From contig JAJCYA010000002.1 of the NCBI GenBank assembly GCA_029263095.1, forward strand, positions 32,511 through 96,510: a stretch of DNA of 64,000 bases, written 5' to 3'. Both the position numbers and the translations under genes were made by a program. Under the pieces are notes generated by a model. The model made no database searches, was not told the origin of the DNA, and was given only the letters and a program-made list of their open reading frames with translations. This stretch comes from Acidimicrobiia bacterium (GTDB lineage Bacteria; Actinomycetota; Acidimicrobiia; Spongiisociales; UBA11373). Of the stretch, positions 32,256 through 50,315 are shown in pieces; position 1 is the stretch's first letter, and the number at the start of each line of letters is the position of its first letter.

Positions 32256-33575
32256 TCAGCCGTTTGGAGGTGAGACGGTGACCCAATCGACTCCGACGAT
32301 CACCACCCGATCTCCCCATTTCACGACGTCGCGACCTGGGACGAAATACTCCCCGTCGGCTTTGTCGAGGGTCCACTGGGCACCATCGGTCGACGTCCAG
32401 ATCGCCTCGGGAAACTGGCTCCCTGCCAGGGCGATGAAGCGGCTCCCCAACCAGACCACACCGTTTGGCAAGACGAGAGAGCCGACCGGTACGGGCGGCA
32501 ACTCGACCCGGTTCCACTCCTGCCCATTCTCACTCCACCAGGCGACCGCGAATCCTTCACTCGGCGTGCTGTCCGCGTTGGGGCGCTCGGAGCCCACCGC
32601 GACGAACCGGCCTCCGCCGGCAGCGAGGTCTTCGATTTGAATCCATCCACCTTCTGGTGCGTCGGCGCCTCCTCTTGCCCAGGTCACCCCATCGTCGCTC
32701 ACCCACGAGAGGAGTTGCGCTTGTCGGTTGCCTCTGAGTCCGACTGCAACCACGACGTCGCCAAGCGTCGCAGCTCCCGCAAGTCTGAGTTCCGGCCCGG
32801 GGGGTTGATCCTCGCTGAACGTCGTCCACGGTCCGGATCCGAAGAAGCTGACGGCGGTGAAGTCGGAGTCATCGGTGCGGTAGGGCTCCCACCACTGGCC
32901 GTTGGCGAACAGATGAACTCGCCCGTTTTCGCCGGTGATGTAGCCGAGATCCATGATGCGGAAGTTCTTCGGACCATCCAGGCGCTGATCGATCCCCGTG
33001 TCGTCAGGACCCTGGAGCAGGATCGCTCCATCGACGCCGCTGGTCACGAGCCACAGGTCGGCTCCGGCACCTTGGCTGCTCACACCCTGCTGAGGAGGAG
33101 CTGCGAACACGCCGTAGAGAGTGTCATCGACGCTCCCCAGCACCATCTGGTGGCGGATAGCGCCCGCACTCGGGAGCGTGCTCTCGGTAGGAAGTCCAAG
33201 TCCCACCAGGTCGACGCGTTCCCAAGTCGAGCCGTCCAACGTGAACGCCAGGATGAACTCGTTCTCTTCATCACGTCCGGCCAGCCACAGGCGGTCGCCG
33301 GCAGCCGCTGCGCTGGCCGGCTGGAAATCGATCTGACTCGTCGTCCACCCTTCATTCGGCAGCGTCGTCGTAGTCGCGGCGGCCACCGTCGTCGTGGAGG
33401 AGACCACCGCTGTCGTCGTCACCGTTGGCGGAGGATGCGGGGCGGTCGACTCGTCTGGGCCGGAAGTCCCGAGGGATGCAGTATCGGCTCCGCCGCATGC
33501 CGCCACAGCGATCGAGATCGTCGCAAGGAGCCCACTGAGCACGGACGGTGTCGAGTGAGGTACGCGACTGCTCAT
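32256..33575 (-). CDS. Secreted lipoprotein with a BNR/sialidase-like beta-propeller (439 aa)
   Basis: Lipobox IAVAACGG, a Thr-rich linker, then repeated S-x-D-x-G-x-T/W-like units (SDDGVTW, STDGAQW, SENGQEW, TLDGSTW). Confidence 0.6.
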   Translation of the reverse strand: MSSRVPHSTPSVLSGLLATISIAVAACGGADTASLGTSGPDESTAPHPPPTVTTTAVVSSTTTVAAATTTTLPNEGWTTSQIDFQPASAAAAGDRLWLAGRDEENEFILAFTLDGSTWERVDLVGLGLPTESTLPSAGAIRHQMVLGSVDDTLYGVFAAPPQQGVSSQGAGADLWLVTSGVDGAILLQGPDDTGIDQRLDGPKNFRIMDLGYITGENGRVHLFANGQWWEPYRTDDSDFTAVSFFGSGPWTTFSEDQPPGPELRLAGAATLGDVVVAVGLRGNRQAQLLSWVSDDGVTWARGGADAPEGGWIQIEDLAAGGGRFVAVGSERPNADSTPSEGFAVAWWSENGQEWNRVELPPVPVGSLVLPNGVVWLGSRFIALAGSQFPEAIWTSTDGAQWTLDKADGEYFVPGRDVVKWGDRVVIVGVDWVTVSPPNG

Positions 33576-33799: not shown

Positions 33800-34330
33800 G
33801 TGGCGATCGAGATGACAGGCGAAGCAGTGGCGATCGAGAGCACCTCGATGAGCGAGGACTTCCAAGAGTTCTACTCCAGGGAGCGCCGGGCTGTGGTGGG
33901 ACTGGCATACGTGCTGTCCGGGAGCCGGTCGGGAGCGGAGGACCTCGCTCAGGAGGCGTTCATCGCTGCGTTTCGCAGATGGGACGAGATCTCGGGATAC
34001 GACGACCCGGGCGCATGGGTGCGGCGGGTCGCAGCGAACAGAGCAACGTCGTGGATCCGAAGGCGTGCCGCTGAGACGAGAGCGCTCCTCCGTATCAAGG
34101 GGTCCGATTTCACGATGCCGGTGCTTGATGCAGAAGCCGACCTCATCTGGCGAGAGGTGCGGCGCCTACCGACGAGACAGGCCCAGACGATCGCGCTTCG
34201 GTACCTGGACGGACAAGAGGTTTCTGAGATCGCCGAAACGCTCCAGTGCTCGGTGAACACCGTCCACACGCACCTTCGGAGGGCAAAGGAGAGGCTCGCC
34301 CGCCGATTCGAGGACAAGGAGATCTCGTGA
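33800..34330 (+). CDS. ECF sigma factor, paralogue of the one at 26288
   Basis: FQEFYSRERRAVVGLAYVLSGSRSGAEDLAQEAF...ALRYLDGQEVSEIAETLQCSVNTVHTHLRRAKERL. Motifs align colinearly with the first sigma. Confidence 0.8.
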   Translation: MAIEMTGEAVAIESTSMSEDFQEFYSRERRAVVGLAYVLSGSRSGAEDLAQEAFIAAFRRWDEISGYDDPGAWVRRVAANRATSWIRRRAAETRALLRIKGSDFTMPVLDAEADLIWREVRRLPTRQAQTIALRYLDGQEVSEIAETLQCSVNTVHTHLRRAKERLARRFEDKEIS

Positions 34331-35394
34331 AGACGATCGACGAGAGATTGGAATATGCGGCTACTGAAGCCCGGCAAGCTGTGGCGCACCTTCCGTCGCG
34401 GACCGCCAAGTTGCCGGGCCGACCGAACCGTGTCGCCCGACACACAGCCCAACTCGTCGCGCTGGTCGCGCTGATCGTCGTGGCAGTCGGCGGAAGCTTG
34501 GTTCTCTTTGACGGGGACCCCGATGTGGCGAGCGGAGTCGCCGAATTCCCTCGCCTCGCGTTGGATGTGGACGCTGTTGGGGCCGACCTCTCCTTGGTCT
34601 TCGCCGAGGACGGAGCGACGTCGCCCCAACCTGCTCAACCGAATCTGCTGGACGTATACGGGGATCCCTCCGCCGGTATCTCCTCGGGTCGGATCTTTGT
34701 TGTGACGGACTTCGACGGCTCGGACTATTTGCGCAACGAACCGTTCAACTCTCCAGGTGTGGTTCCGGTTTCGGTGCCGACAGGGGTTGCCTACCTCCAC
34801 GACGAGGGTCTCGCCTCGGTAATCCTTTGGCAGATCGAAGAGGATCATGGTCTCGCAGTCACGATCCAGGGAGTCGGTATAAACACCGCAACGCTCCTCG
34901 ACGTGCTCGCAGGAATCCAGTACGACGAGACCGGCGCGGAGGTCGATTCCCTGCCGCCTGGCTTCACCCTGCTCTACTCCGGCCCCACGCGTACTGAGGG
35001 CGAACGCAAGGTGTATATCCACTGGGCGACGCCGCTAGGCGATGGCCCGCAGGCCACAGCCACGTTGGAGCTTCATCAGGGGGCCGAGGCCCCCTTGGAG
35101 AGGGGCAGGTACACCATCACGCCTGACGCCGGTATCTCCGCGATCAGCGAGACCCAAGTGCTCGCGAAGCCGGCCCTGCGAATGGAGCTGGGCGATGTGG
35201 TGGTGTTCCAGTGGCTCCAAAGCCCAACCGTCTACGCGCGGCTCATCGTGCTGGGTTTCTCCGATGCAGATGGAGTTGCCGCCGCCCTCCGCGAAGTGGA
35301 CGACGCCACCTGGGAGCAGATGTTCAGGAACGAGCGACCCACCGATCCCGCCTCGACAGAGACAACGGCCGCGCCGACGACGTCGTCGCCGTAA
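34327..35394 (+). CDS. Putative membrane anti-sigma factor (single TM), GTGA-coupled to the sigma gene
   Basis: GTG overlaps the sigma stop. TM LVALVALIVVAVGGSLVLF and a large extracytoplasmic domain. Confidence 0.5.
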   Translation: MKTIDERLEYAATEARQAVAHLPSRTAKLPGRPNRVARHTAQLVALVALIVVAVGGSLVLFDGDPDVASGVAEFPRLALDVDAVGADLSLVFAEDGATSPQPAQPNLLDVYGDPSAGISSGRIFVVTDFDGSDYLRNEPFNSPGVVPVSVPTGVAYLHDEGLASVILWQIEEDHGLAVTIQGVGINTATLLDVLAGIQYDETGAEVDSLPPGFTLLYSGPTRTEGERKVYIHWATPLGDGPQATATLELHQGAEAPLERGRYTITPDAGISAISETQVLAKPALRMELGDVVVFQWLQSPTVYARLIVLGFSDADGVAAALREVDDATWEQMFRNERPTDPASTETTAAPTTSSP

Positions 35395-35507: not shown

Positions 35508-37190
35508 TCAGCTGGCGCGCCACACGTTGAGGATCGGGTGGTTGTAGCCGGTCTCTCCGACCCGATTGAGGGGGTATCCGAAGACCTCGTAGGGGTGTCG
35601 AATGTCGAAGTGGGAGCCTTCGAATAGGGCGGCGCCGAAACCTTGGAGCTGACCCGGTGTGAAGACCTCGAGTGCGGCCGCCAGAGCACCTTCGGCCATC
35701 TCGTAGGCTCCAGCAAAGTCCGAGGGGCAGATGTCGGCCTCGCAGAAGCCATCTCCGGTCTGGGCGCCGATCGGCCCCCCCGTCATGAAGAGCATCACCG
35801 GAGTGGCGTTGTCGATCTCGGTGGCGAGGGCTCGTACCGCCCGGCCGAAGATCTGCCGCAGGTCGGGTCCGACGGATTCGGGAGCACCGACACCCGCGAT
35901 GACGCCTTCGAACGCGGACCAGTGCGGCCTCCGATCTGCGGGCGGCACCTGGCCGGCGACGCTGAGGAACCCTGCTTGCCAGAGCCGGAACCCTGCCCGG
36001 CGCCACTCAGCTATCCGCACCTGTTCGTAGTCCGAAATGGCGGATTCCATCCGAAGGCATGCGGTCTGCTCGGCCGGGTCCGGATAGCAGTAGGCGGTGA
36101 GGGCCGTCTCCGCGAACCAGGGTTGTGCATACCCGATCACGACCTCCTTCTCGCGCAGCAGGTACGCGTCGTCCCAGACGGTGAGCAGGGTGTCCATGAT
36201 GTCGAGAACGGCCAGCCGGTTGAATGCCTGGAGCACCGCGTCGGGGTGTACTCCGGCGATCTCGTCCCAAGGTATCTCGACTCGCTCTGAGACGAACGAA
36301 TCGAGCGTTGCCGGTTCGGCGGCGTCCATAACCGTCTGGAGCTGCTCGGGGCTCATGCCTAGGGAGGTCATCAACACGTCGCCTCGTCGCACCAGCGAAG
36401 GATCGTCGCCGCACGACGGCACTTGGGAACAGTCTTCGCCGTTGACGACGAAGGTCCCGTCCGGCAGCCACTCGACGCTCGACACCTCACGACTCACCGT
36501 CACGATCCAGGGGGGCGACAGCACCTCTCCACCAAACGTTGTGATGTATCCGTCGCGCTGTGGTCCCACCTCAGAGTCGCCCAGCGAGTAGGGACCTTCG
36601 CCGAGAGCGTCAACGATGTTGAAGAACAACTTGGGGAGCTCCGTCTGAGGCTGCTGCAATCGCAATGAGCCATCCGGGGTGCGACAGGCTGCATACAACT
36701 CTCCTCCGACGAGGGCGTTTGAGTTACCGGCGGCTGCCTTATCAGGATCCAGGTAGGTGTCGAGGTCGAGTTCGAGAGGCTCGAGCCCAGCACAGTCGCC
36801 TGCCTCGTCGAAGGCGACTACGCACATCGTCTGTACCCCATTCTCGCCGGGAGTGCCGCGGTAGCGAAAGCGCAGACAGGAGATCCCGGAGTCGAGCGCG
36901 GTGACTTCGCCCTCGCCGACCACAACCGGCTCACCCTCGAAGTCGATGACCTCCAGCAGCTCCCCGAAACCCGCCACCGATCTGCTGTCTCCGACGGGAA
37001 CGAACACATGGGACGCAAGCCGCGCGGGAGCCCCGTCTGGGGTCAATCCATCTCCAGATGTCGTCGCCGCACCCGTGGCACCGGGGCCGCAGGCCGAGAC
37101 GACCAACGCTCCGACCAGCAGCAAGCTGGGTGTTGGGCGTCGACCAACACCCAGCCCCGCGGGCTCCGTCCGCGCGCCCATACGCCGCAT
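35508..37190 (-). CDS. Hypothetical secreted lipoprotein (560 aa)
   Basis: LLLVGALVVSACGPG lipobox. It is Cys-rich, with no recognisable catalytic motif. Confidence 0.55.
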   Translation of the reverse strand: MRRMGARTEPAGLGVGRRPTPSLLLVGALVVSACGPGATGAATTSGDGLTPDGAPARLASHVFVPVGDSRSVAGFGELLEVIDFEGEPVVVGEGEVTALDSGISCLRFRYRGTPGENGVQTMCVVAFDEAGDCAGLEPLELDLDTYLDPDKAAAGNSNALVGGELYAACRTPDGSLRLQQPQTELPKLFFNIVDALGEGPYSLGDSEVGPQRDGYITTFGGEVLSPPWIVTVSREVSSVEWLPDGTFVVNGEDCSQVPSCGDDPSLVRRGDVLMTSLGMSPEQLQTVMDAAEPATLDSFVSERVEIPWDEIAGVHPDAVLQAFNRLAVLDIMDTLLTVWDDAYLLREKEVVIGYAQPWFAETALTAYCYPDPAEQTACLRMESAISDYEQVRIAEWRRAGFRLWQAGFLSVAGQVPPADRRPHWSAFEGVIAGVGAPESVGPDLRQIFGRAVRALATEIDNATPVMLFMTGGPIGAQTGDGFCEADICPSDFAGAYEMAEGALAAALEVFTPGQLQGFGAALFEGSHFDIRHPYEVFGYPLNRVGETGYNHPILNVWRAS

Positions 37191-38577: not shown

Positions 38578-39660
38578 TTAGGGAGATCGGCCGGCAGGTA
38601 TGAGTTGTCGACGGTGGGGCGGGCTGGTGGGGTCGATACGCATGCCGCGGCCGTGGATGGCGACGTGGTGGTGCCACCAGCACAGGGTGACGAGGTTGGC
38701 AGGGTCGTTGGTGCCGCCTTGGGACCGGGGAACAATGTGGTGCACTTCGAGGCGGTAATTGCTTTGGCATCCGTCGACGGTGCATCCTTGGTCGCGTCCC
38801 AGGATGAAGCGTCGAAGCTTGGGTGGGATCACCCTGGTGGTGGGTCCGACTCCCAGCGGGACACCGGGGCCGGTGTCGACAAGTACCTCGACCGAGCCTG
38901 CGCACATGATCCGATCCATCGTCTCGGGTCCGACCCGGGGGCCGTTGGCGACCATCACGCCCGCCTCGGCTCCGGTTGCTGAGGCGAGGGCGGCGTCGAC
39001 GATGACGGTGACCACCGGGCCGCCGCGACTGGTTGTGGAGGAATCGGATCCGCCAGACAGCCAGTCCTGGGAAAGTGCTACCAGAGCGTCGGCGCGCCGT
39101 TGCCCGGCGGTGGCTTGGGTGTCACGAGGCAGCAGGTCGGCTCGGTCCTCTAGTGCTTTGGTGACGACCCGCCAGTCGTATCCAGTGAGTTCGGCGTGGA
39201 TGAATCCGACCGACTCATCCAGCGACGCCCAACTACGTACTGAACGCTTGGAGTGCGCCTCATGCTCGGTCCTGCGGGTGATACGTTGCTGCAGAGCACG
39301 GAGTCGGCGGATACCGGCGATGTCACGCTCGTCGGCTTGGGCCACCGTGGCGTCATCGGCGCCGACACCCACGAGTGCCGCCACTGCCGCCACTCGGTCA
39401 AACGACCACGACCCGGACTCCAGCTTCGCGATCGTCTGGGAGCGCTCAGGAGTCCGCCGGGCAGCTTCGAGCAGGTCACGAGCGGTGTGTTGGGACACGT
39501 CGAGAGCACCGGCGAGTTCATCGGCACCGGGATCTGGATCGCGCCGCAGAAGCCCACGCAGAAGGTGGACCTGACGTGCTCGGACGGCAGCCACCTGCTG
39601 CTCACACTCACGCAACGCAAGAAACACCTCCTCACGCGACATGATCGGCTCATCGAACAT
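38578..39660 (-). CDS. DUF222 + HNH endonuclease domain protein (REP13E12-like family)
   Basis: C-terminal HNH motif CQSNYRLEVHHIVPRSQGGTNDPANLVTLCWWHH, with an N-terminal DUF222-like helical region. The ORF extends upstream through the recombinase remnant, so the real N-terminus is possibly disrupted. Confidence 0.8.
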   Translation of the reverse strand: MFDEPIMSREEVFLALRECEQQVAAVRARQVHLLRGLLRRDPDPGADELAGALDVSQHTARDLLEAARRTPERSQTIAKLESGSWSFDRVAAVAALVGVGADDATVAQADERDIAGIRRLRALQQRITRRTEHEAHSKRSVRSWASLDESVGFIHAELTGYDWRVVTKALEDRADLLPRDTQATAGQRRADALVALSQDWLSGGSDSSTTSRGGPVVTVIVDAALASATGAEAGVMVANGPRVGPETMDRIMCAGSVEVLVDTGPGVPLGVGPTTRVIPPKLRRFILGRDQGCTVDGCQSNYRLEVHHIVPRSQGGTNDPANLVTLCWWHHHVAIHGRGMRIDPTSPPHRRQLIPAGRSP

Positions 39661-39720
39661 AGGAGCATCATGCCCGCCAGGTGTGACACAAAACGAGCAA
39701 ACCGAGAGGGTCGGACTGAG

Positions 39721-39803
39721 ATGAACATAACCCTCCAGGAAGTGGGCCTGACCGGAGGGTCTAGTTCTCAGCCTGTCGGAAAGCCGACGTCTCTGAACGA
39801 CGA
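39721..39803 (+). pseudogene. Remnant (last ~15-25 codons) of a large serine recombinase C-terminus
   Basis: MNITLQEVGLTGG... parallels the '...APPMNVLLSEVGLKGG' ending of the longer remnant at 42432 and of actinobacterial serine recombinases. Confidence 0.35.
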
Positions 39804-39873
39804 CCCCAACGCGAATGAGTTCCGGCAAAGCCGGAACTCCCAAGGAACGCGAAGCGTTCCCGGTGTTGGAGAG
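39804..39873. repeat. 70-bp repeat copy 1, containing two perfect hairpins; its last 14 nt equal the tRNA-Leu 3' acceptor region
   Basis: CCCCAACGCGAATGAGTTCCGGCAAAGCCGGAACTCCCAAGGAACGCGAAGCGTTCCCGGTGTTGGAGAG. It is identical, bar one T/C, to 42758..42827. Confidence 0.8.
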
Positions 39874-39919
39874 AGGACTCGAACCTCCACGGGGTATTCC
39901 CCCACTAGGCCCTCAACCT
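39860..39919 (-). repeat. Partial copy (3' 60 nt, anticodon loop to 3' end) of tRNA-Leu(GAG), an att-type direct repeat
   Basis: 59/60 identity to 43998..44057. The match ends inside the anticodon stem, which is a classic integrase crossover position. Confidence 0.75.
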
Positions 39920-40157
39920 CGAACCGCTCTTGCAGGCCCGGCGTCCGGGGGGCAACTCGGTGCCCGTCGCTACGCCCCCGGGACACATTGTGCAGCTCCG
40001 AAGGGGGCGGTGGGGAGTCTCCGACCTGCCGATAGAGATGCCTTCATCGCGTTGCACCCACACCGTGGTCCGGGGGTGCCTGTCTGGGTGCCACAACCGG
40101 ATATCCGGTCCTTGCCTCACCTCCCCCCAGCCAAGTTTGGTGGCCTCAGTGTGGCTG

Positions 40158-40481
40158 TCAGGGCTTCCGGGTGGAGTCGTTCGGCGCATCGACGATCGTG
40201 AGGTCGCCGACGCGGTCCACGATCAGCTGAACGGCTCTGGAGTTCGTATTGATGTCCTTGTGCGGGATAGTCATCTTGATTACGCGGGCCGCTCTTCGAA
40301 TCTCTTCAGACCCTATGTTCTCCGAGAGTGACTTGTCTTTCTCGACCAGTTCCCGGGCCTGCTCGGGTGTGAGGTCCTCGGCCTTGTTGGCGGCGTAGAG
40401 ACCAATGACCCGTCTGTCCATCTCTGTGAGATCGAACTCGACGCTGAGCCGACGTTGATTCTGCTTTCGCTCCTCTGACAT
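40158..40481 (-). CDS. Small protein (107-111 aa) with a possible ribbon-helix-helix-like N-terminus, in an operon with the radical-SAM gene
   Basis: A strong SD GAGGAG lies 5 nt upstream of the ATG at 40481. The alternative GTG at 40493 overlaps the rSAM stop. RRLSVEFDLTEMDRRVIGLYA is a beta-strand-helix pattern. Confidence 0.55.
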   Translation of the reverse strand: MSEERKQNQRRLSVEFDLTEMDRRVIGLYAANKAEDLTPEQARELVEKDKSLSENIGSEEIRRAARVIKMTIPHKDINTNSRAVQLIVDRVGDLTIVDAPNDSTRKP

Positions 40482-40489
40482 TGCGCTCC

Positions 40490-42445
40490 TCACACCGTTT
40501 CGCGCCAGACGATTAGGTAGCTCTTGTCAAGCTCCTCGTATCGGCGTGCGACGTTGTCTCGAACCGTCTCAAGCTTACCGCCCGAGATCCCATGTACTAC
40601 TGGAACGATCTCTTCGAACAGGAGCTTCCCCGCCGCGAGCTCCAACAGCAGGCCATCGGTGGGCGAGAGCTTCAGGAGGCCTCGGTGTGATCGAACTGCC
40701 AACCCACCGTGGTCGGGGGCCGTGGTGAGCTTGACGGTCCTCACGGGCTGAAGGCGCTCGAGGCCCAGATCCGCGGCTTGTCTGAAGTCGATCCCCGTGT
40801 GCGCTGCCTGTGGGGCGAACCAATTGACTAAGGATTCGTGGCTCTGAAGCTCTTCATACCACTCGGTGGAGATCCCGTGCGCGTAGTAGGCCCACATGTG
40901 AGCGTCGATAGTCTCGTTGGGTAGGTCCGGCAGAAGCTCCGACATTGTCGCATCGACACGTCGGTCAAACTCGCTCCCCGCCGAGAGGATATCGGTCTTC
41001 GAGAGAGATTCGGTGCGACAGAACACGTGCTCGCAGTCTCGACCAGTGACTGCCAGGGGGTCGAGGATCTGAACCCCGTAACGTTCAGGCGTCTCCGCCA
41101 TCGGCGTGCTGGTGTATGGAGTGAAGAAGGCACCAGATACCGATGTCATGCCAGGCGCCATCCGAAGAAGCGAGTCTGCCACCTCGAAGGTCTCGTGGAG
41201 AGTCTGGGCCGATTCAAGCGCGCCCCCGATGATGAAGTTCGCGTGGAGAGAGAGCAGTCCTGCATCTCGGGCAGCCTCTGCAACATCGAACAGCTGCCGG
41301 TTGGTGGTCTTCTTGTTGTAACTCCGCAGAACCATTTCGGAACCGGATTCCGCTCCAATCTGGAGACGGATAAGGCCGGCGGCGACCATCTTCGGCAGCA
41401 GATCCACGTTTCGCTCTCTCGAGAGCACGTCAACCCGTGCCAGGCAGAACCACTTCACTGCGCCGTCGTACCGTTCGATTAGGCCATCGCAGAACTGGCG
41501 AAGACGGCCCGCAGATGCGGCGAAGTGGTCGTCGTTGATCGCTATGTAGTTTGCTCCTAGGCCTACCAAGTAATCGAACTCCTCCAAGCAGCGTTCCACC
41601 GAATGCATCCTGAAGTTCTTCAGCCCGGCTTCGAGCCCCTCGTAGCAAAAGGCGCACCGGGCGGGGCAGCCGCGGCCAGTGATCATTGCCGGTGCGGATG
41701 AGTCGAATGGCTCGAGCGCCAGTTTCTTCCGATCGGGGATTCCAAGAGTGTCGAGGTTCTCGATGATGCGCCGCACAGGGTTGGTTACAAGCGAGCCATC
41801 GGATGCACGGAATACCAACCCCGCGCAACCTTCAAGTTCGCGGGGCCTAAGCGTCTTCATCTCAAGTAACTCGAGGAATGTCTCCTCACCGTCACCGAAC
41901 ACTCCGATGTCCGCTCCGATCAGCCGATCCATCGTCTCAACGGGTGCAGCGGTGATCTGGGGACCTCCAACGACAATGGACACTCCCGGGCACCGATCTT
42001 TGATGGCCGGAAGGATTCGCCGGACGTCCCACAGATTCTCCTGATCAACGTAGAACCCAAGGACCCGGACATTCCGTTCGGTGACGGTTCGCGAAATCCG
42101 ACCAACCAAGACATCGTTAGATGAGAGTGTGTCAACCAGAACACGGTGCCCGCGATCGTGAGCGTATTGGGCAAGATAGAACAGGCCCAGTTGCATGCGT
42201 CTGAAGTGTCTCCAAAGTACCGGCGAACTCTCTACGAACACCAGAAGCGCGGCGAGGCTCTGTCCGGAGGCCAAGGTCTTAGCCCGAGTGTCGACCACCG
42301 GCTGGTCCTCCTGTGGGTTGATCGGCTCAGAAGCGCCCCACGAAGCTAGTTGAGATGTCAGAACGGTGTGGACGCCCAAGCGGAGCGAATGGTCATGTAG
42401 TCGTTCTAGGTCTGAGGCCTGGGCGCGTCGCTTGCAGGAGCGCAA
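40490..42445 (-). CDS. B12-binding-domain radical SAM enzyme (class B rSAM, 651 aa)
   Basis: N-terminal cobalamin-binding-like domain (LGLFYLAQYAHDRGHRV...GFY...VVGGPQ) and rSAM cluster motif ITGRGCPARCAFCYEG. The start is uncertain, possibly at MQLGLFY (~42199). Confidence 0.85.
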   Translation of the reverse strand: MRSCKRRAQASDLERLHDHSLRLGVHTVLTSQLASWGASEPINPQEDQPVVDTRAKTLASGQSLAALLVFVESSPVLWRHFRRMQLGLFYLAQYAHDRGHRVLVDTLSSNDVLVGRISRTVTERNVRVLGFYVDQENLWDVRRILPAIKDRCPGVSIVVGGPQITAAPVETMDRLIGADIGVFGDGEETFLELLEMKTLRPRELEGCAGLVFRASDGSLVTNPVRRIIENLDTLGIPDRKKLALEPFDSSAPAMITGRGCPARCAFCYEGLEAGLKNFRMHSVERCLEEFDYLVGLGANYIAINDDHFAASAGRLRQFCDGLIERYDGAVKWFCLARVDVLSRERNVDLLPKMVAAGLIRLQIGAESGSEMVLRSYNKKTTNRQLFDVAEAARDAGLLSLHANFIIGGALESAQTLHETFEVADSLLRMAPGMTSVSGAFFTPYTSTPMAETPERYGVQILDPLAVTGRDCEHVFCRTESLSKTDILSAGSEFDRRVDATMSELLPDLPNETIDAHMWAYYAHGISTEWYEELQSHESLVNWFAPQAAHTGIDFRQAADLGLERLQPVRTVKLTTAPDHGGLAVRSHRGLLKLSPTDGLLLELAAGKLLFEEIVPVVHGISGGKLETVRDNVARRYEELDKSYLIVWRETV

Positions 42446-42700
42446 CGAGATTGCTCAGGCGTTTGGGGACGTCGCCCGGCACCTGGCCGACCTCGACATT
42501 GACGAGATCTGGCAGGAAGCGACCGAGAAGGAGCGGTGGGTTATCGCCTCCGCCTTGCTCGACGAGATCACGGTCTACCTGGAGCACCTCGAAGTGGAGG
42601 TCTCAGGAGCACCCCCTATGAACGTCCTGCTGTCAGAAGTGGGACTGAAAGGTGGCCCAGAGGTACCCCCCACCAACTCGCTTCGCTCCCTGACTCCCCC
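42432..42700 (+). pseudogene. C-terminal ~85-codon remnant of a large serine recombinase, with no N-terminal catalytic domain
   Basis: ERNEIAQAFGDVARHLADLDIDEIWQEATEKERWVIASALLDEITVYLEHLEVEVSGAPPMNVLLSEVGLKGG matches the conserved C-terminal 'ER..LI..L...V...DHLEV...GAP.LNV...EVGLK' signature. The recognition is from memory and is not alignment-verified. Confidence 0.45.
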
Positions 42701-42757
42701 ACAAGGGTGTCGGGTTGCGGGAGGGGGGAGTGATAGGCCTGGGAGCGATTGCGCGGC

Positions 42758-42827
42758 CCCCAACGCGAATGAGTTCCGGCAAAGCCGGAACTCCCAAGGA
42801 ACGCGAAGCGTTCCCGGTGTCGGAGAG
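42758..42827. repeat. 70-bp double-hairpin repeat, copy 2
   Basis: 69/70 identical to 39804..39873. It is followed by non-tRNA sequence that forms a 7-bp terminal inverted repeat (GTGTCGG...CCGACAC). Confidence 0.8.
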
Positions 42828-42929
42828 CCTTCGGTGGGTGAGTTAGACCCCGGTTGGCGGATCAGGCAATGGACCGACACAGTGCAAGGAGGTCGCCTCC
42901 ACCACTGATCAGACAGCCGAGCGTAGAAG

Positions 42930-43952
42930 TCAGGTCTCGGCTATCACCAACGTCCAACCGCTTGCCCAACGTGGCCCGACCGCCGACAAACCGGCGGCCT
43001 CTGAACCGCCGAAACCGGAGGCCCGCAGCATCCGTTGAATGTCGCCGGAAGTCTGAGGCGTCGTCGCATTGCCCGAGAGTGAGGCCAGCAGCGCCCAATG
43101 GGCCCGGCTCGGATGCGCCAACCCGCTCTCTTCCCCGAACTTGCCCACGATGATGAGCCGCCCTCCCGGGTTCAACGAGGCGAAGAACTTGCGAAACAAA
43201 CCTTCGGTGTAGATGCCAACGTCGCAATAGACGATCGCATCGAAACCGCTCGGTAGGTCCTCGGCCATGAAGTCAAGGGTCTGGTAGCCGATGCGTCCAG
43301 CGAGGCCAGCCGCATCGGCGATCTCTTGACCTGCAGCACAGACGTTGGCGATGTCAACCACCACCGCCTCGAGGTTGGGATTGCATCGCAGCATGGCCAG
43401 CGACACGACGCCAGAGCCACCCCCGACATCCAGCAGACGTTCAGAGCCGTCGAGAGGGACGAGGTCGGCGACCTGCTCGGCGAGCGGCAAATGCACCTCG
43501 TAGAGCATCTGAGTGAACTCCGACGCACGCTTTGGATCGTCGATCATCTTGGCGAGATAGTCGGGCCGGACAAGGCCCTGCGCCTCCCAGGGAGTCCCCG
43601 GTTCAGTGAGCTGGACGGCGAGATCGCGAACTGCGGGGAACCTCTCTCGGGCCTCCCGGGCCAGGTAGGCCCAGGTCTCCGAGCTGAAGGCATCATTGAT
43701 CGCCTGGCGCGCTGCTATCGACGTCGAGTATCCGTCCGCACCTCGATCCAGCAGGCCCAGCTCGACGATCATCTCCAGCCAGGGGTGGCACCGCTCCTCG
43801 GGGACTCCCGTCGCCTTGGCGACCTCCCTGACAGTCAGGGGCCGCTCATCGAGGAGCCAGAACAGTTTGTGCTCCATGGCCGCCCCGACGGCAGCGGACG
43901 CCACGTAGCGATCGATCAGCTCAAAGATGCTGTCGGGGGTCATTGGACTCAT
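42930..43952 (-). CDS. Class I SAM-dependent O-methyltransferase (family-2 OMT with an N-terminal winged-helix dimerisation domain)
   Basis: LLDVGGGSGVVSLAML (motif I), VVVDIANV, and a C-terminal OMT fold. Confidence 0.8.
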   Translation of the reverse strand: MSPMTPDSIFELIDRYVASAAVGAAMEHKLFWLLDERPLTVREVAKATGVPEERCHPWLEMIVELGLLDRGADGYSTSIAARQAINDAFSSETWAYLAREARERFPAVRDLAVQLTEPGTPWEAQGLVRPDYLAKMIDDPKRASEFTQMLYEVHLPLAEQVADLVPLDGSERLLDVGGGSGVVSLAMLRCNPNLEAVVVDIANVCAAGQEIADAAGLAGRIGYQTLDFMAEDLPSGFDAIVYCDVGIYTEGLFRKFFASLNPGGRLIIVGKFGEESGLAHPSRAHWALLASLSGNATTPQTSGDIQRMLRASGFGGSEAAGLSAVGPRWASGWTLVIAET

Positions 43953-44000
43953 GACCTATGAGTATGACACCCGTCCACCCAAACAACCCCGGGGGTCGCC

Positions 44001-44085
<85 letters not shown>

Positions 44086-44123: not shown

Positions 44124-45203
44124 CTAGACGACCTTCTGAACCTCTGGGAAGTGGCATGCCACCCAGTGGTCGGGCTCGATTTCTCTCATCTCGGGGACGT
44201 CGTCCGAACACCTTGGGAACTCGGCCCTGGGACACCTGGTGTTGAAGCGACACCCGGTGGGGGGGTTGATCGGCGACGGGATGTCGCCCTCCAGGATGAT
44301 CCGGCGCCGCTCCCGCTCCACCGTCGGATCCGGAATCGGCACGGCCGACATCAGAGCGTGGGTGTAGGGGTGCATGGGCCGCTCGTAGAGGGTGTCCCGG
44401 TCGGTAACCTCGGCCATCATGCCCAGGTACATGACTCCGACGCGGTCGCAAACGTGACGGACCACCGAGAGGTCGTGGGCGATGAAGAGATAGGTGAGGC
44501 CGAACTCCTCCTGAAGGTCGCCCATGAGGTTGAGCACCTGAGCCTGAATGGAGACATCGAGGGCTGAGACCGGCTCGTCCAGAACCATGAAGGAAGGGTT
44601 GAGGGCGAGAGCCCGTGCCACTCCGATGCGCTGCCGTTGACCTCCAGAGAACTCGTGCGGATACCGGTTGGTGTGCTCGGGGTTGAGGCCAACCACTTTT
44701 AGCAACTCCTTGACACGCTCCATGCGATCGGAAGTGCTTCCGATGCCGTGAACCAGCAGAGGTTCCGCGATGATGCTCGCCACCGTCATCCGAGGGTTGA
44801 GTGATGCGTACGGGTCCTGAAAGACGATCTGGATTTCGCGTCGCAGCCTGCGCATCTGATCCTTGTTGGCCGCGGCGATATCGATGACCTCGATCGCATC
44901 CGAGGAATCCCCGTCCGGCTCGCCTCGGTACCAGACGTTGCCGGATGTCGGTTCCAGCAGCCGCAAAACGCAGCGCGCCGTGGTGGACTTGCCGCACCCC
45001 GACTCCCCGACGATTCCGAGCGTCTCACCCCGGTCGATGTGGAATGAGATGTCGGAAACAGCTTGAACGGCGGCGATCTGCTTGCGGAAGAAGATCCCCT
45101 TCGTGATCGGGAAGTTCTTGACGAGGTTCTCGACCTGCAGGAGCCTCTCCGGCGGCATCTGCACGGCGGGATCGGTCCCACGTGTCGTCGTGTCCTGTGT
45201 CAT
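44124..45203 (-). CDS. oppF: Oligopeptide/dipeptide ABC transporter ATP-binding protein (OppF-like)
   Basis: Walker [10 protein letters not shown], signature LSGGQRQR, Walker B FMVLDEP and a C-terminal oligopeptide-ABC extension. The start overlaps the oppD stop (ATGA). Confidence 0.9.
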
Positions 45204-46210
45204 CCGACCGGTTCTCCCTTCACACGGATCAGATCCAGGTCTGGAGCGAAATGGCACGCCACCCAATGGTCCTCAGAGATCTCACGCGGCAAGGGGGTGT
45301 CGCGGGTGCAGATCTCCTTCGCAAAGTCGCAGCGTGACCTGAATCGACACCCGTTGGGCGGATCGATCAACGATGGGGGCGCTCCCCGAATCGAGTAGAG
45401 CCGCTCCTCGCGGACCTCGTCGAGTCGGGTCATAGAACCGAGCAACCCCGCGGTGTACGGGTGCAGCGTGTCGTCGAAGATGAAATCGGTTGTGCCCCGC
45501 TCGGCCAGGCGGCCGGCGTACATCACCTGGATGTTGTCGCAGAACCCCGCAACCACACCCAGATCGTGTGTGATGAGCATCACGGCTGTGTTGCGCTCCT
45601 CCGTTAACACCAGCATCAGGTCGAGGATCTGGGCCTGAGTGGTGACATCAAGAGCGGTAGTCGGCTCGTCGGCGATGAGCAGATCCGGATCACACGACAG
45701 CCCCATGGCGATCATGACCCTTTGCCGCATACCGCCCGAAAGCTGGTGCGGATAGTCCTCCATTCGCACCTTGGGATTCGGGATGTGCACATCGTCGAGA
45801 GCCTGGATGGCGATCTCCGCTGCCGCACTCTTGCCGACCGACTGGTGGAGCATGATCGTCTCGATCAGCTGGTTCCCGATTGTGTAGACCGGGTTGAGGG
45901 CCGTCATCGGATCCTGGAAGATCATTGCGATCTGTCCGCCGCGCACCTTGCGCATTTCCTCATCCTTCAAACCGAGGAGATCCTCACCCTTGAAGGTGAT
46001 CTCTCCGGTCACTATCTCGCCGGCCGGTGGTTCGATGAGTCGCATCACTGAGAGCGCGGTCACCGACTTCCCGGAACCCGACTCTCCGACAACACCGAAC
46101 TTCTCGCCCTTGTGGATGGTGAAGCTCAACCCGTCCACGGCGCGAACGATGCCCTCCTCGGTGGAAAAGAACGTGCGAAGGTTGCTGACCTGAAGGAGTG
46201 GTTCAGACAC
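45200..46210 (-). CDS. oppD: Oligopeptide ABC transporter ATP-binding protein (OppD-like)
   Basis: [27 protein letters not shown]. Confidence 0.9.
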
Positions 46211-46221
46211 GAAGTGACAAC

Positions 46222-47190
46222 CTACTTCCGCTCAATCGTCTGGGTCGGGTCGAGGGCATCTCGCAAACCGTCACCCAGGAAGTTCACCGAAAGCACCGTC
46301 ACTATCAGGGCGACCGATGGGAACAGCACCAGCCACCACGCTCCGGAGCCACCCACCGCCAATCTCCCTCCGTTGGCGGCCATCTGCCCCCACGCCGGCT
46401 CCGGTGGGCGCACACCGAATCCGAGGAAGGACAGCGCCGCCTCCAGAATGATGGCCGTGCCGATCACCAGCGTGGCGTTCACGATGATCGGGCTGAGGGC
46501 GTTCGGAAGAATATGTCGGAAGATGATCCGTCGGTCTCTGGCTCCCGCAGCGCGGGCCGCTTCGACGAACTCCTTCTCCCGCAAGGAGAGAAACTCGGCA
46601 CGGACAATCCGGGCGAGCGTCCCCCACAGCAAGGTACCTAAGAGAACGGCCAGACTCAGCGCCTCCCTGCCTTGGAAGGTCTCCCGCAGCCAGGCGGCAG
46701 CCACGATGGCGACCGGAAGCAAAGGGAGGCTGAGAATCAGATCGGTAAACCGCATTAGCAGGGTGTCGATCCAGCCGCCGTAGTACCCGGCAATCGAACC
46801 GACCAGGGTTCCAAACGTGGCGACCATGAGCCCGGTGAGGACGGCGACGGTGAGGCTGGTGCGCCCCCCGTAGATGACCCGCGCCAGCACATCCTGTCCC
46901 AGTTCATCGGTTCCGAACCAATAGTCGCCGCGCGGAGACAGCAGGTTCACGATGCGGCCGCCCTCGTCCTCGAGCTGCTGGGTCGGATTCTGGAGCGGAA
47001 GCACATCGGCGAACACAGCCAGGAGCAAAATGACGCCAAGCACCACTGCGGCCAACATCGCCAGGCGGTGCCTTACAAACCGGCTCTTGAACAGTTGCCA
47101 CTGAGTGATCGGCTCGACGGTCAGACCCTCGGCCTCGATGTCGAGCGCCGAATAGGAGTTGGGATCGTCGCCGCGGGGGCGATCAGTCAT
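46222..47190 (-). CDS. oppC: Peptide ABC transporter permease (OppC/DppC-like)
   Basis: BPD_transp_1 motif EAARAAGA...IFRHILPN. Six TM helices. Confidence 0.85.
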   Translation of the reverse strand: MTDRPRGDDPNSYSALDIEAEGLTVEPITQWQLFKSRFVRHRLAMLAAVVLGVILLLAVFADVLPLQNPTQQLEDEGGRIVNLLSPRGDYWFGTDELGQDVLARVIYGGRTSLTVAVLTGLMVATFGTLVGSIAGYYGGWIDTLLMRFTDLILSLPLLPVAIVAAAWLRETFQGREALSLAVLLGTLLWGTLARIVRAEFLSLREKEFVEAARAAGARDRRIIFRHILPNALSPIIVNATLVIGTAIILEAALSFLGFGVRPPEPAWGQMAANGGRLAVGGSGAWWLVLFPSVALIVTVLSVNFLGDGLRDALDPTQTIERK

Positions 47191-48184
47191 AGCGGACCCT
47201 CGGGTCGAGCCAGCCATACGCCAGGTCTGCGAGCAGGTTCATGACCACAACCATGAACCCGATGAGCATCACGACTGCCATCACAATCGGCCAGTCGTTT
47301 AGGAAGATCGCCTGGATATAGAGGCGACCCATCCCCGGCCAAGCAAAGATCGATTCGGTGATCACGGCGCCGCCGAGAACGCCGGCGACATCCAGCGATA
47401 CCAGCGTGATTATCGGAATGAGGGCATTGCGAAGTGCGTGCTTCACTATCACGCTGCGACGCGACAACCCCTTCGCTTTGGCCGTTCGCAGGTAGTCGCT
47501 ATGCATCACCTCGAGCATGGACGCCCGCTGATACCGCGAATAGCCGGCGATCGAGATCAGGGCGATCGACGTTGCCGGAAGCACCAGGTGTTGGAGGGTG
47601 TCGCCGATGCGCGCTCCAAACGAAAGGTCGGAGTAGCTCGTGCTGTTCATGCCCGAGGTGTAGAAGAACTTGACCCCGGTCCACTGTTCTAACTTTAAGG
47701 CCAGGATGATCTGGAGTCCGATGCCGAGCACGAAGATCGGTGTCGAGAACGTGACGAACGAGAACGTCGTCGTCGCTTGATCGAAGAACGAGTACTGCTT
47801 GATGGCTTGGTAAATGCCTAAGGGAATACCGATCATCACCGCTAAGCCGAGGGCGGTGAACATGAGCCTGGCGGTGCCGCCGAGGCGGTTTAGCACAAGC
47901 TCCTGCACCTGCTGGGGGCCTTGGAAGGAACGCCCCCACGCTGTGGGGTAGTTCCAGACCTGCACGAAGTTCCCTACCCATGTGAGGTACTGCTTGGTAC
48001 CCGGCTGGTCGAGGCCGTAGAACTCGGCCATCTCCTGGATGGCCTGCTGGGTGATCCGGGGATTGGATTTGAGACGGTCCAATGGATCGCCGCCGGTGTT
48101 CTGAAGAAGCGTAAAGGTAATGATGGACAGCGCCAGAAGCGTGATCATTCCGTAGACCAGTCTCCTGATCACGTATTGGAGCAT
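47183..48184 (-). CDS. oppB: Peptide ABC transporter permease (OppB/DppB-like)
   Basis: The start MLQYVIRRL is typical of DppB/OppB. EAA-like loop LRTAKAKGLSRRSVIVKHALRNAL. Confidence 0.85.
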   Translation of the reverse strand: MLQYVIRRLVYGMITLLALSIITFTLLQNTGGDPLDRLKSNPRITQQAIQEMAEFYGLDQPGTKQYLTWVGNFVQVWNYPTAWGRSFQGPQQVQELVLNRLGGTARLMFTALGLAVMIGIPLGIYQAIKQYSFFDQATTTFSFVTFSTPIFVLGIGLQIILALKLEQWTGVKFFYTSGMNSTSYSDLSFGARIGDTLQHLVLPATSIALISIAGYSRYQRASMLEVMHSDYLRTAKAKGLSRRSVIVKHALRNALIPIITLVSLDVAGVLGGAVITESIFAWPGMGRLYIQAIFLNDWPIVMAVVMLIGFMVVVMNLLADLAYGWLDPRVRYD

Positions 48185-48395
48185 CTGTCCGCCGACCTCC
48201 TCCCGCGCCGCGCAAATCGGCCCGGCGAGTATACCGATCGAGCGACGGTCCCCCGCATAAACGCCGGTTAACTGTTTACAAGCCGACAGTTCAATCGGTC
48301 GTTCAGCCGCCCTCAGAACGACAGCCGCGCCAACACCGCTCGGCTGCCGGTCTCTAGCCGATGCGTGACCTCCCAGGCCGCCCCGACCCAAACGA

Positions 48396-48423
48396 GAAGG
48401 GGCCCGCCGAAGCGGGCCCCTTC
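48396..48423 (-). terminator. Strong GC hairpin in the oppA-oppB intergenic region, a possible intra-operon attenuating terminator
   Basis: GAAGGGGCCCGC-CGAA-GCGGGCCCCTTC, a perfect 12-bp stem. On the transcribed (-) strand it is followed by the weak U-tract UUCUCGUUUGGG. Confidence 0.35.
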
Positions 48424-48455
48424 TTCACACGTTGAAGTGTGTATCGGATTCGACC

Positions 48456-50315
48456 TTAGAGGTCGACCCGGTACCACTGCTCAATGTTCCAGGTGTCACC
48501 GGCCTGAGATGGGTTGTGCTTGTAGCCACCCAACTCGTCGGCCCAGACGGCCCCGGGGTCGAGACGTGCATAGAGCGGAATGATCACGACCTGGTCGGCC
48601 AGGATCTGCTCCGCCTCATGAATGATCTCCGTCAGTTCGTCCACGTCCACGGTCGAGTTCATGTCGTCCCGTAGCACGGCGAACCGGGCGGTGTTGTCGT
48701 CGATGACCGACGACGCGCCCTGGTTGAAGCCCTCCGGGTCAGCACCCTCCACTGCGGCAGTGCCCCAGCGGTAGAAGTTCTGGCCGTCCGGCGGTGCGCC
48801 CTCAGGATCGAAGATGTCGTGAATGCTCACGAGACCTGCGAATCCAGGCGTACCAACCCAGGCCCACTCGCCGAGATCCCAGTTACCAAAGTCGAGGGTC
48901 TCGCCGAAGAACAGCGAAGAATCCTCGAGCTGGTTCTCGTAGACAATGCCCGCATCGGCGAACATCTCGACGAACAGCTGCGACAACGTCACACGGGCGT
49001 CGTTGTTCGAAGTGGTCGAGAAGATCGTCGAAACCGGGTTGGCATCGCAATCGGTGTCGTCGCGGGCGCAAAGGTCCGCAACGAGCGCGATAGCGGTGTC
49101 AGGGTTGTAGTCGTACTGATCCCAAGCACCGAGCGAAAGCGTCGGGCTGAAGGCGTCCACGTACGAGCTCATCGGCTCGACCTGGCCCTTGAGGATCTCG
49201 TCCACAATCTTGGTCTTGTCGATGGTGTGAGCCACGGCTTGGCGGTACTCGAGGAACTCGTTGTACGAGCCCGCGTTCCGCACCAGCCGGTTGTCACCGA
49301 ACTGGAAGTTCAAGTGCTCCCAAATCGGACCCGACAGGACCTCCACCGAAGCGCCTTCACTCTCGAGGGTCTGAAGATCCTCGATCGTTTCAATGCTCGG
49401 CGGCGGATTGATGACGTCGACCTCACGTGCCTTGAACGAGTTGATCAGGGCTGCGGTCTCGGGAATGAACCGGAAGATGACGGAATCGAGGAAAGGCAGC
49501 TGCTGCCCGGTCTCGGCATCGGTCTTCCAGTAGTTCGCGTTACGCGTCAGGCGAATGAACTCGCCCTTCTGCCACTGATCGAATTCGAACGGACCACCCG
49601 ACACCCACATGGTGTCGTTCCAGTCGTTGATGAAGTCCGAACCCTCCACATCGTGCTTCGGAATCAGGAAGCCGAAGATCAGCTCAGCCTGAACGGTCGG
49701 AGCAGTGAGGGTGAATTCGAATGTCTTGGGGCCTGCCACAACAGTCGCCGGATCAATGTCTTCGTAGACGGTCCGGGTGATCGGCAGATCGGGATCCATG
49801 ATCGTGTTGTACGTGAACTCGAAGTCATCCCCAGAAATGGGGGTGCCATCGGCCCACACAGCCTCATCAAGAATCGTGTACCGAATGGTCTCGGTACCGT
49901 CTGCATTGATCGAAATTCCGCCGTTGGCCACGGTCGGGAGCTCCGTCACGACTTCCGGGATCAACTCGAGGGTGAACCCATCGATGTCCTGGACGCCGGT
50001 CCAATACCCATTGCCCACGATCGAAACGATGAAGTTGTCACCGCCCGGTGCGAAGGTGTTGAGCGTCGGAGGCTCCTGGTCACTGGCAACGATCGCCTCA
50101 CCACCGTAAGGCTTGCCCGTGGGGGCGGCCTCAGTGGTGGTAGGAGCGGCGGCTGTCGTGGTCGGCGCTGCAGTGGTAGTGGTCGTCGCTGCCGGTGCTG
50201 AAGTCGTTCCCGTCGTCTCTGCCGTGTCGTCGTCACCGCAAGCGGCCACGACGAGGACAAATGCGAGGAGAAGACCCAGCCACGTCAAGCTACGACGTTG
50301 CCACAGGTGCTTCAA
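48456..50315 (-). CDS. oppA: Peptide ABC transporter substrate-binding lipoprotein (SBP family 5, OppA-like)
   Basis: Lipobox VVAACGDD, a Thr/Ala-rich linker, and family-5 SBP length and motifs. Confidence 0.85.
   Translation of the reverse strand: MKHLWQRRSLTWLGLLLAFVLVVAACGDDDTAETTGTTSAPAATTTTTAAPTTTAAAPTTTEAAPTGKPYGGEAIVASDQEPPTLNTFAPGGDNFIVSIVGNGYWTGVQDIDGFTLELIPEVVTELPTVANGGISINADGTETIRYTILDEAVWADGTPISGDDFEFTYNTIMDPDLPITRTVYEDIDPATVVAGPKTFEFTLTAPTVQAELIFGFLIPKHDVEGSDFINDWNDTMWVSGGPFEFDQWQKGEFIRLTRNANYWKTDAETGQQLPFLDSVIFRFIPETAALINSFKAREVDVINPPPSIETIEDLQTLESEGASVEVLSGPIWEHLNFQFGDNRLVRNAGSYNEFLEYRQAVAHTIDKTKIVDEILKGQVEPMSSYVDAFSPTLSLGAWDQYDYNPDTAIALVADLCARDDTDCDANPVSTIFSTTSNNDARVTLSQLFVEMFADAGIVYENQLEDSSLFFGETLDFGNWDLGEWAWVGTPGFAGLVSIHDIFDPEGAPPDGQNFYRWGTAAVEGADPEGFNQGASSVIDDNTARFAVLRDDMNSTVDVDELTEIIHEAEQILADQVVIIPLYARLDPGAVWADELGGYKHNPSQAGDTWNIEQWYRVDL

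Follow-up and report, generated by a model that had tools for sequence, protein, structure and literature searches.

Cobalamin (B12)-binding radical S-adenosylmethionine (rSAM) enzymes guided by a recognition element (RRE) for peptides synthesised ribosomally and modified post-translationally (RiPPs) modify unactivated carbons, a demanding chemistry, and have been characterised in few cases. One is ApyD, of aminopyruvatide biosynthesis, an RRE-containing B12-rSAM that beta-methylates a tyrosine of its precursor; the cluster also encodes an MNIO, a P450 and a methyltransferase (ApyS), and the precursor is short, ending in GYLYD (PMC10635010). In clavusporin biosynthesis MpcB carries out, with MpcC, multiple beta-methylations of a core with a high content of Val, Ile, Thr and Pro; MpcC is a separate DUF5825 protein, required by MpcB without being its substrate, and the two are clustered with an S9 peptidase and a major facilitator superfamily (MFS) exporter (PMC10849626). 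The family modelled by TIGR03975 (rSAM_ocin_1) comprises B12-rSAM C-methyltransferases whose precursors carry long, protein-like leaders of the Nif11 or NHLP type. Polytheonamide methylases reportedly C-methylate the hydrophobic core of a RiPP iteratively, and enzymes with a B12 domain and an rSAM core catalyse other reactions besides C-methylation. Here we describe a relative of these enzymes encoded in a 64,000-nt stretch of an Acidimicrobiia bacterium contig (JAJCYA010000002.1), hereafter the window, to whose positions coordinates refer except where another locus is named. We favour, with moderate confidence, a reading in which its gene and the small gene directly downstream form a RiPP-like module of two: a class B rSAM with a fused RRE and a partner protein of about 107 aa as its probable substrate. 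The general kind of system, in which an RRE guides a radical-SAM enzyme to the peptide that it modifies, is known; the partner family is undescribed and the architecture minimal.

The rSAM gene occupies 40490-42298 and the partner gene 40158-40481, both on the minus strand. The original prediction, made from the letters of the DNA, had placed these two genes and one for an O-methyltransferase (OMT) on a single strand, and all three are indeed there, on the minus strand. It took the enzyme to be a 651-aa protein with the motif CPARCAFC and a B12-binding domain: domains and motif are as described, but 651 aa is the maximal reading only, of an open reading frame (ORF) extending to 42445. The likely start is a GTG at 42298, 7 nt past an AGGAGG sequence, which gives 602 aa, and a public collection contains exactly this shorter form (P0001, identity and coverage both 100%). 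Similarly, the GAGGAG sequence noted in front of the small gene, whose ORF has a maximal span of 40493-40158, is present, but the spacing differs: rather than lying 9 nt from the rSAM gene or overlapping it as GTGA, the partner starts at an ATG at 40481, 8 nt beyond the rSAM stop. The resulting 107-aa protein is likewise in the public collection (P0121).

The order of domains in the enzyme is that of class B. A cobalamin-binding, Rossmann-like domain (residues 37-144; 41867-42190, minus strand; Pfam PF02310, 59 bits against 32.1, E 5.5e-16) lies ahead of the radical-SAM core (residues 205-372; 41183-41686, minus strand; PF04055, 55 bits against 29.5, E 1.3e-14), and the latter contains the cluster motif C211-x3-C215-x2-C218 (41645-41668, minus strand), whose three cysteines are invariant across 48 homologues. 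Core profile and CxxxCxxC motif thus place the protein in the radical SAM superfamily; by domain architecture it is a class B member, predicted to use cobalamin. Its AlphaFold2 model has a pLDDT of 93. The closest structures are CysS, TsrM, TokK and OxsB. Identity to these four and to MgmA and AprD4 is 15-21%, over aligned regions that exclude the C-terminal domain discussed below, and the six act on small molecules or on MCR rather than on a 107-aa protein encoded alongside.

Profile searches returned 19 NCBIfam matches, all far under the curated cut-offs: the best, ApyD (NF050148), reaches 104.2 bits against 750, others include BchE (88 against 481) and HpnJ (85 against 578), and the cut-offs of PhpK, HpnR and BzaD are likewise far from reached. 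Since no curated cut-off is attained, the enzyme is not a known cofactor or lipid enzyme, a possibility that had been singled out for checking. The likeness to ApyD is nevertheless instructive. In both proteins a B12 domain, an rSAM core and a peptide-recognition element, putative in the window enzyme, are joined in a single chain of about 600-650 aa, and the ApyD precursor too is ribosomal and encoded in the same cluster; but the ApyD match covers the B12/rSAM core only, so the enzyme falls outside the ApyD equivalog, and whereas ApyD acts in a multi-enzyme cluster, the window module has two genes only, one of them for an unrelated partner of about 107 aa. A single-sequence scan of genome contigs with the window rSAM gave one distant relative (L008) among the matches listed.

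What follows the core and a helical region in the enzyme appears to be a PqqD-like RRE (residues 517-599; 40502-40750, minus strand), recognised from AlphaFold2 topology and homologue profiles as three to four strands followed by three helices. In the model the strands (517-543) and helices (546-554, 561-572 and 576-592), at pLDDT >88, have the winged-helix topology of an RRE. Among the 48 homologues six match Pfam PqqD (PF05402), and in one of them (P0113; 27.2 bits against a cut-off of 23.4) the match, over residues 527-589, falls in the aligned region. A profile of the C-terminal domain (A7) matches the PqqD structures 5sxy, 5vrd and 3g2b (E 0.006-0.26) along almost their entire length.

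The enzyme and its partner travel together. Counting distinct loci whose flank could be read, and whichever of the two genes served as starting point, a homologous small ORF lies directly beside the rSAM gene in 15 of 15 loci, with enzymes 42-48% identical; homologues of the two proteins thus do co-occur elsewhere, and the coupling originally proposed for this genome is borne out. Where complete, the partners are of 103-136 aa. They lie downstream of the rSAM gene in L002, L003/L004, L005, L006, L007, L009, L010-L013, L015 and L089/L090, lie upstream of it in L014, and overlap its start by 4 nt in L091. The related loci examined have no further conserved gene near the pair, the neighbours ranging over LeuS, proline-biosynthesis genes, TRAP transporters and WD40 proteins, and the distribution of the cassette across phyla is patchy. 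Pairwise identities among enzymes are correlated with those among partners (Mantel r 0.67, with 1 of 5000 permutations as high), which indicates that the two genes are inherited as a unit.

Two sorts of neighbour may be recorded alongside. In three loci (L002:1024-3600, L089:2263-4905 and L007:6783-7658) the cassette has a gene of aminoacyl-tRNA-synthetase type directly upstream, the first two being class-I synthetases with a leucyl-specific domain and the third an AlaX-like tRNA_SAD protein, and the window cassette itself lies near a tRNA-Leu gene; the agreement of L002 and L089 may only mean that the two genomes are related. In L093 a CbiA-type gene (cobyrinic acid a,c-diamide synthase-like; 543-2072) adjoins the partner gene at the contig edge, which could be coincidental or connected with B12 supply.

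The partner family is a rare one, represented by 43 clusters in a profile search of 1.84 billion representatives. No Pfam or NCBIfam model describes the partner, and searches with 40 family members revealed no consistent or recurring family; in particular, none of the 40 matches the Nif11 (TIGR03798) or NHLP (TIGR03793) leader models, and the same search does detect Nif11 in a distant locus, L076. The N-terminal half comprises a basic stretch, a strand of consensus KKIRVEFE and then, roughly, '..VKELIESG.KGPK.LSDEELEKLSKKGVIRASDYLD', at a mean pairwise identity of 39%; the C-terminal half is variable (20% identity), rich in Lys, Val, Ala and Ser, with almost no Cys, and ends in a nearly invariant Pro-Lys(-Glu). 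A gene adjacent to the enzyme, precursor-like in having a conserved N-half and a variable C-half, is what a RiPP cluster should contain, and the pattern resembles that of leader plus core. Membership of the window partner was judged with a hidden Markov model (HMM) from whose seed the window copy had been left out. A word-based search with the window partner finds only itself, the family having surfaced through gene neighbourhoods and then profile searches. With filters off, however, the leave-one-out HMM scores it at 11.2 bits (E 2.5e-5 as a single test), a weak yet significant similarity, the score being reached by none of 2000 shuffled sequences, and it retains the VEF strand (RRLSVEF, against the consensus KKIRVEFE). 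We regard it, from position and profile, as the positional orthologue and a highly divergent member of the family.

The family profile also produced ten matches, to its positions 20-55, in a protein of 2847 aa (P0158); these belong to an EF-hand-like repeat array and were treated as spurious. In L009 the partner (2270-2466) has an in-frame TAG where its relatives have Glu (MERKIRVEI*LSPERV...), with similarity continuing past the stop at 64.6 bits; this could be a pseudogene, a sequencing error or a case of read-through.

This partner is absent beside more distant rSAM homologues (about 30-35% identity), whose neighbours are instead evident or plausible RiPP substrates. A Nif11-leader precursor lies next to the relative in L076 (44.4 bits against a cut-off of 32.3), a 42-aa Cys-rich peptide near those in L017, L019 and L023, of which L017 also has a profile-confirmed PapB-like rSAM/SPASM enzyme, ORFs of 79-91 aa near those in L027, L029, L031 and L035, and small ORFs rich in Val, Ile, Thr, Ala and Gly near those in L038, L044, L046 and L055. 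Such neighbours indicate that the wider enzyme family is peptide-modifying. Together with the probable C-terminal RRE and the conserved pairing, they support that alternative of the original prediction which saw a RiPP-like system with the small protein as possible precursor. A rumen/gut clade has its own peculiarity: a Cys-rich protein of about 105 aa (FKCxxCGxCCRN...), with no NCBIfam match, recurs by the enzyme (L028:1782-2105, L029:6775-7089, L030:2046-2369 and L035:1267-1596), accompanied by an ORF of 79-91 aa upstream, an arrangement that may represent a separate variant with three genes.

If the partner is the substrate, the RRE would dock its conserved N-terminus, with the basic stretch, the RRLSVEF strand and the next ~40 residues acting as leader, an interaction that is predicted from the modelled domain; the rSAM/B12 core would then act on at least one residue of the K/V/A/S-rich, variable C-half or of the conserved tail. 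The chemistry is most likely C-methylation, of unactivated carbons, by analogy with ApyD and MpcB. MpcB and the polytheonamide methylases, with which the window enzyme is compared here by description, act on ribosomal peptides rich in Val, Ile and Thr, and both the C-half of the partner family and the small ORFs beside distant relatives are rich in Val, Ala, Ile and Thr. The C-half is, however, also rich in Lys and Ser and far less hydrophobic, and unlike the MpcB locus the present pair has no S9 peptidase, MFS exporter or DUF5825 partner. The long, protein-like precursors of TIGR03975 enzymes, as of the relative in L076, offer another parallel, but the window enzyme scores 50.8 bits with that model against 281.85, and none of 40 members of its partner family matches the Nif11 or NHLP leader models. 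As an experimental object the module is a compact, easily cloned unit, an enzyme of about 600 aa with a partner of about 110 aa, of which about 40 divergent natural pairs exist in several phyla.

Several results weigh against the substrate reading. The window enzyme's own RRE region has no direct Pfam PqqD match, and the best PqqD structure match of the domain profile is borderline (E 0.006), level with matches to centrins that are spurious; for these reasons we call the RRE assignment well supported rather than proven. (The centrins are picked up through a motif like GKLSFEEI, which we treat as a chance helix-loop-helix resemblance.) Under default filters the leave-one-out HMM misses the window partner, which in the alignment has an insertion of about 19-24 residues after the VEF strand, and this partner could be a decaying copy. 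Finally, the leader peptidase and/or exporter of a RiPP cluster are lacking: no conserved protease or exporter lies near the pair in the contexts examined, which makes a secreted RiPP end-product doubtful and suggests that the product may stay uncleaved and intracellular. From this a bolder proposal can be framed, of a mobile, self-sufficient and non-secreted system in which the B12-rSAM would install an unprecedented modification on a partner of about 110 aa that works modified, uncleaved and within the cell, its leader and substrate family being new and unrelated to Nif11 and NHLP. We consider that proposal, taken whole, rather unlikely; an uncleaved intracellular product would set the module apart from classical RiPPs.

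The partner might instead be an accessory protein, a scaffold or a regulator, for example a DNA binder of ribbon-helix-helix (RHH) type controlling the operon or a helper like MpcC, the substrate being encoded elsewhere or being a small molecule. The original prediction saw in the beginning of the partner an RHH or MetJ/Arc fold, and the AlphaFold2 model does place strand, helix and helix in RHH-like order at residues 11-48. That model is poor (pLDDT 54) and gives no confident fold; Foldseek found neither an RHH nor any other match to it in the PDB, although a model of this quality makes the search uninformative; and with no Pfam, NCBIfam or PADLOC match to the partner, and none of the 40 family members matching RHH, Arc, MetJ or another family, the proposed fold was not upheld. 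The lack of a confident fold itself speaks against a stable RHH domain and would suit a substrate that is bound by its enzyme. A conserved N-half joined to a hypervariable C-half is, moreover, rare in regulators. The case for a helper draws on the MpcC precedent and on the missing protease and exporter, but the enzyme already appears to have an RRE of its own, and no alternative conserved substrate gene appears in any neighbourhood examined. We therefore think a non-substrate partner unlikely, and retain the substrate reading.

A different doubt concerns this genome alone: the cassette could be decaying, inert cargo, the enzyme perhaps intact and the partner drifted past recognition. The low score of the window partner against the rest of its family (11.2 bits), its insertion, the truncated ORF adjacent to the cassette and the in-frame stop in the partner of L009 are all of the kind that decay would leave. 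Both ORFs are nonetheless uninterrupted, with their Shine-Dalgarno sequences and 8-nt coupling kept and the VEF strand preserved in the partner; all 39 positions invariant in the enzyme family, the three cluster cysteines among them, are also kept in the window copy, but this is so by construction, that copy being the reference row of the alignment. Decay in this genome appears to us improbable, and a functional pair of modifier and substrate remains our preferred reading.

The surroundings of the cassette bear on two further explanations. The 3' part (43999-44058) of an intact tRNA-Leu(gag) gene (44087-44001, minus strand) recurs at 39860-39919 (60 nt, 98% identity), so that an insertion of about 4.1 kb is bounded by a direct repeat of the tRNA 3' part, as in tRNA islands. 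Within it lies a 2.95-kb unit enclosed by a pair of 70-nt direct repeats (42758-42827 and 39804-39873, 99% identical). The first (repeat B) consists of the final 12 nt of the tRNA-Leu 3' end and 58 nt of hairpin-forming flank; the second belongs to a longer boundary repeat (C, 39804-39919) at the far end of the inserted segment, in which the 3' half of tRNA-Leu (39860-39919) is joined to the same flank, the 58-nt portion being what follows the tRNA fragment there (39804-39867). The unit contains a truncated plus-strand ORF (42366-42671), the rSAM gene and the partner gene; the OMT gene (43952-42930, minus strand, 340 aa in the ORF list) lies outside, between the intact tRNA-Leu and repeat B. 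In a separate Logan assembly of the same sequence (L001, 2898 nt) the contig breaks at the 70-nt repeats and ends before the OMT gene, which leaves it with no genes but the truncated ORF, the rSAM and the partner. G+C is 0.59-0.60 over 40001-42000, the rSAM region, against 0.63-0.65 in most of the window. With the tRNA-Leu gene, the repeats and the dip in G+C, the tRNA-island context claimed by the original prediction is real, and from the repeats and the insertion at tRNA-Leu we conclude that the cassette was probably acquired horizontally in this genome.

The duplication is wider than the exact 70-nt repeat. The final ~13 codons of the truncated ORF, MNVLLSEVGLKGG (42609-42671, plus strand), recur as MNITLQEVGLTGG beside repeat C (39709-39774), which is consistent with successive insertions at tRNA-Leu and suggests that the same site was used repeatedly. 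The truncated ORF had been read as a recombinase remnant, a claim that searches of Pfam, PHROGs and the PDB, and tblastn against phages and plasmids, all negative, did not sustain; its end, '...GAPPxNVLxSEVGL', may resemble the C-terminus of actinobacterial serine recombinases. No integrase or recombinase gene was identified within the insert. A search for RNA families near the cassette gave the tRNA only, with no cobalamin riboswitch or other RNA, and a consensus scan for promoters and terminators gave nothing above shuffled sequences. Repeat B, folded as RNA in the direction of transcription, forms two stable hairpins (-47.5 kcal/mol, z -4.2), which argue for a transcriptional boundary between OMT and rSAM.

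A repeat-bounded insertion at a tRNA gene, together with the patchy spread across phyla, is what might be expected if a mobile island carried a system for anti-phage defence, the other alternative originally offered, or one resembling toxin-antitoxin pairs, and the enzyme has a weak PADLOC match to the candidate PDC-M51A (26.7 bits). That match, however, covers the generic B12/rSAM core only and is not a meaningful one, the partner has no match in PADLOC-DB 2.0, and the enzyme has none in PHROGs. Elsewhere, too, the surroundings are heterogeneous: nine other contexts hold housekeeping or miscellaneous genes rather than defence islands, and in none of 16 other related loci does a tRNA gene adjoin the cassette, so the island, though real here, is not a general property of it. 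A role in defence is accordingly very improbable, and the modifier-substrate reading stands.

The OMT belongs to family 2, as had been said (Methyltransf_2, PF00891, 45.9 bits against a cut-off of 22.3; dimerisation domain, PF08100, 26.4 against 25.6), and reaches no specific NCBIfam equivalog (BchU 51.5 bits against 276). That OMT, rSAM and partner make up a single tailoring cassette directed at one common peptide or small molecule is scarcely credible: the three genes share a strand within 3.8 kb, ApyD is joined with the methyltransferase ApyS in the aminopyruvatide cluster, and the OMT has a faint match to ApyS (23 bits), but the cut-off of that model is 400, the OMT is parted from the rSAM by the 70-nt repeat with its two hairpins and by the oppositely oriented truncated ORF, the Logan unit stops short of it, and tblastn against 93 related loci (683 kb) found no relative of the OMT, nor any of the truncated ORF or of the HNH protein described below. 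With the misleading OMT and defence associations cleared away, the enzyme and its partner are left as the module.

Ordinary chromosomal genes flank the island: on one side those of an Opp-type ABC importer (44124-50315) and on the other, below 39843, those of a DUF222-HNH protein and an MscS channel. The DUF222 and HNH endonuclease protein (38578-39843, minus strand) adjoins the island boundary on its outside, and its HNH part gives a weak match to an IscB model (39 bits against 175). Further down lie three minus-strand ORFs with no Pfam family, at 35508-37190 (560 aa), 33949-35022 (357 aa) and 32256-33575 (439 aa), the first of which begins with a hydrophobic stretch like a signal peptide.

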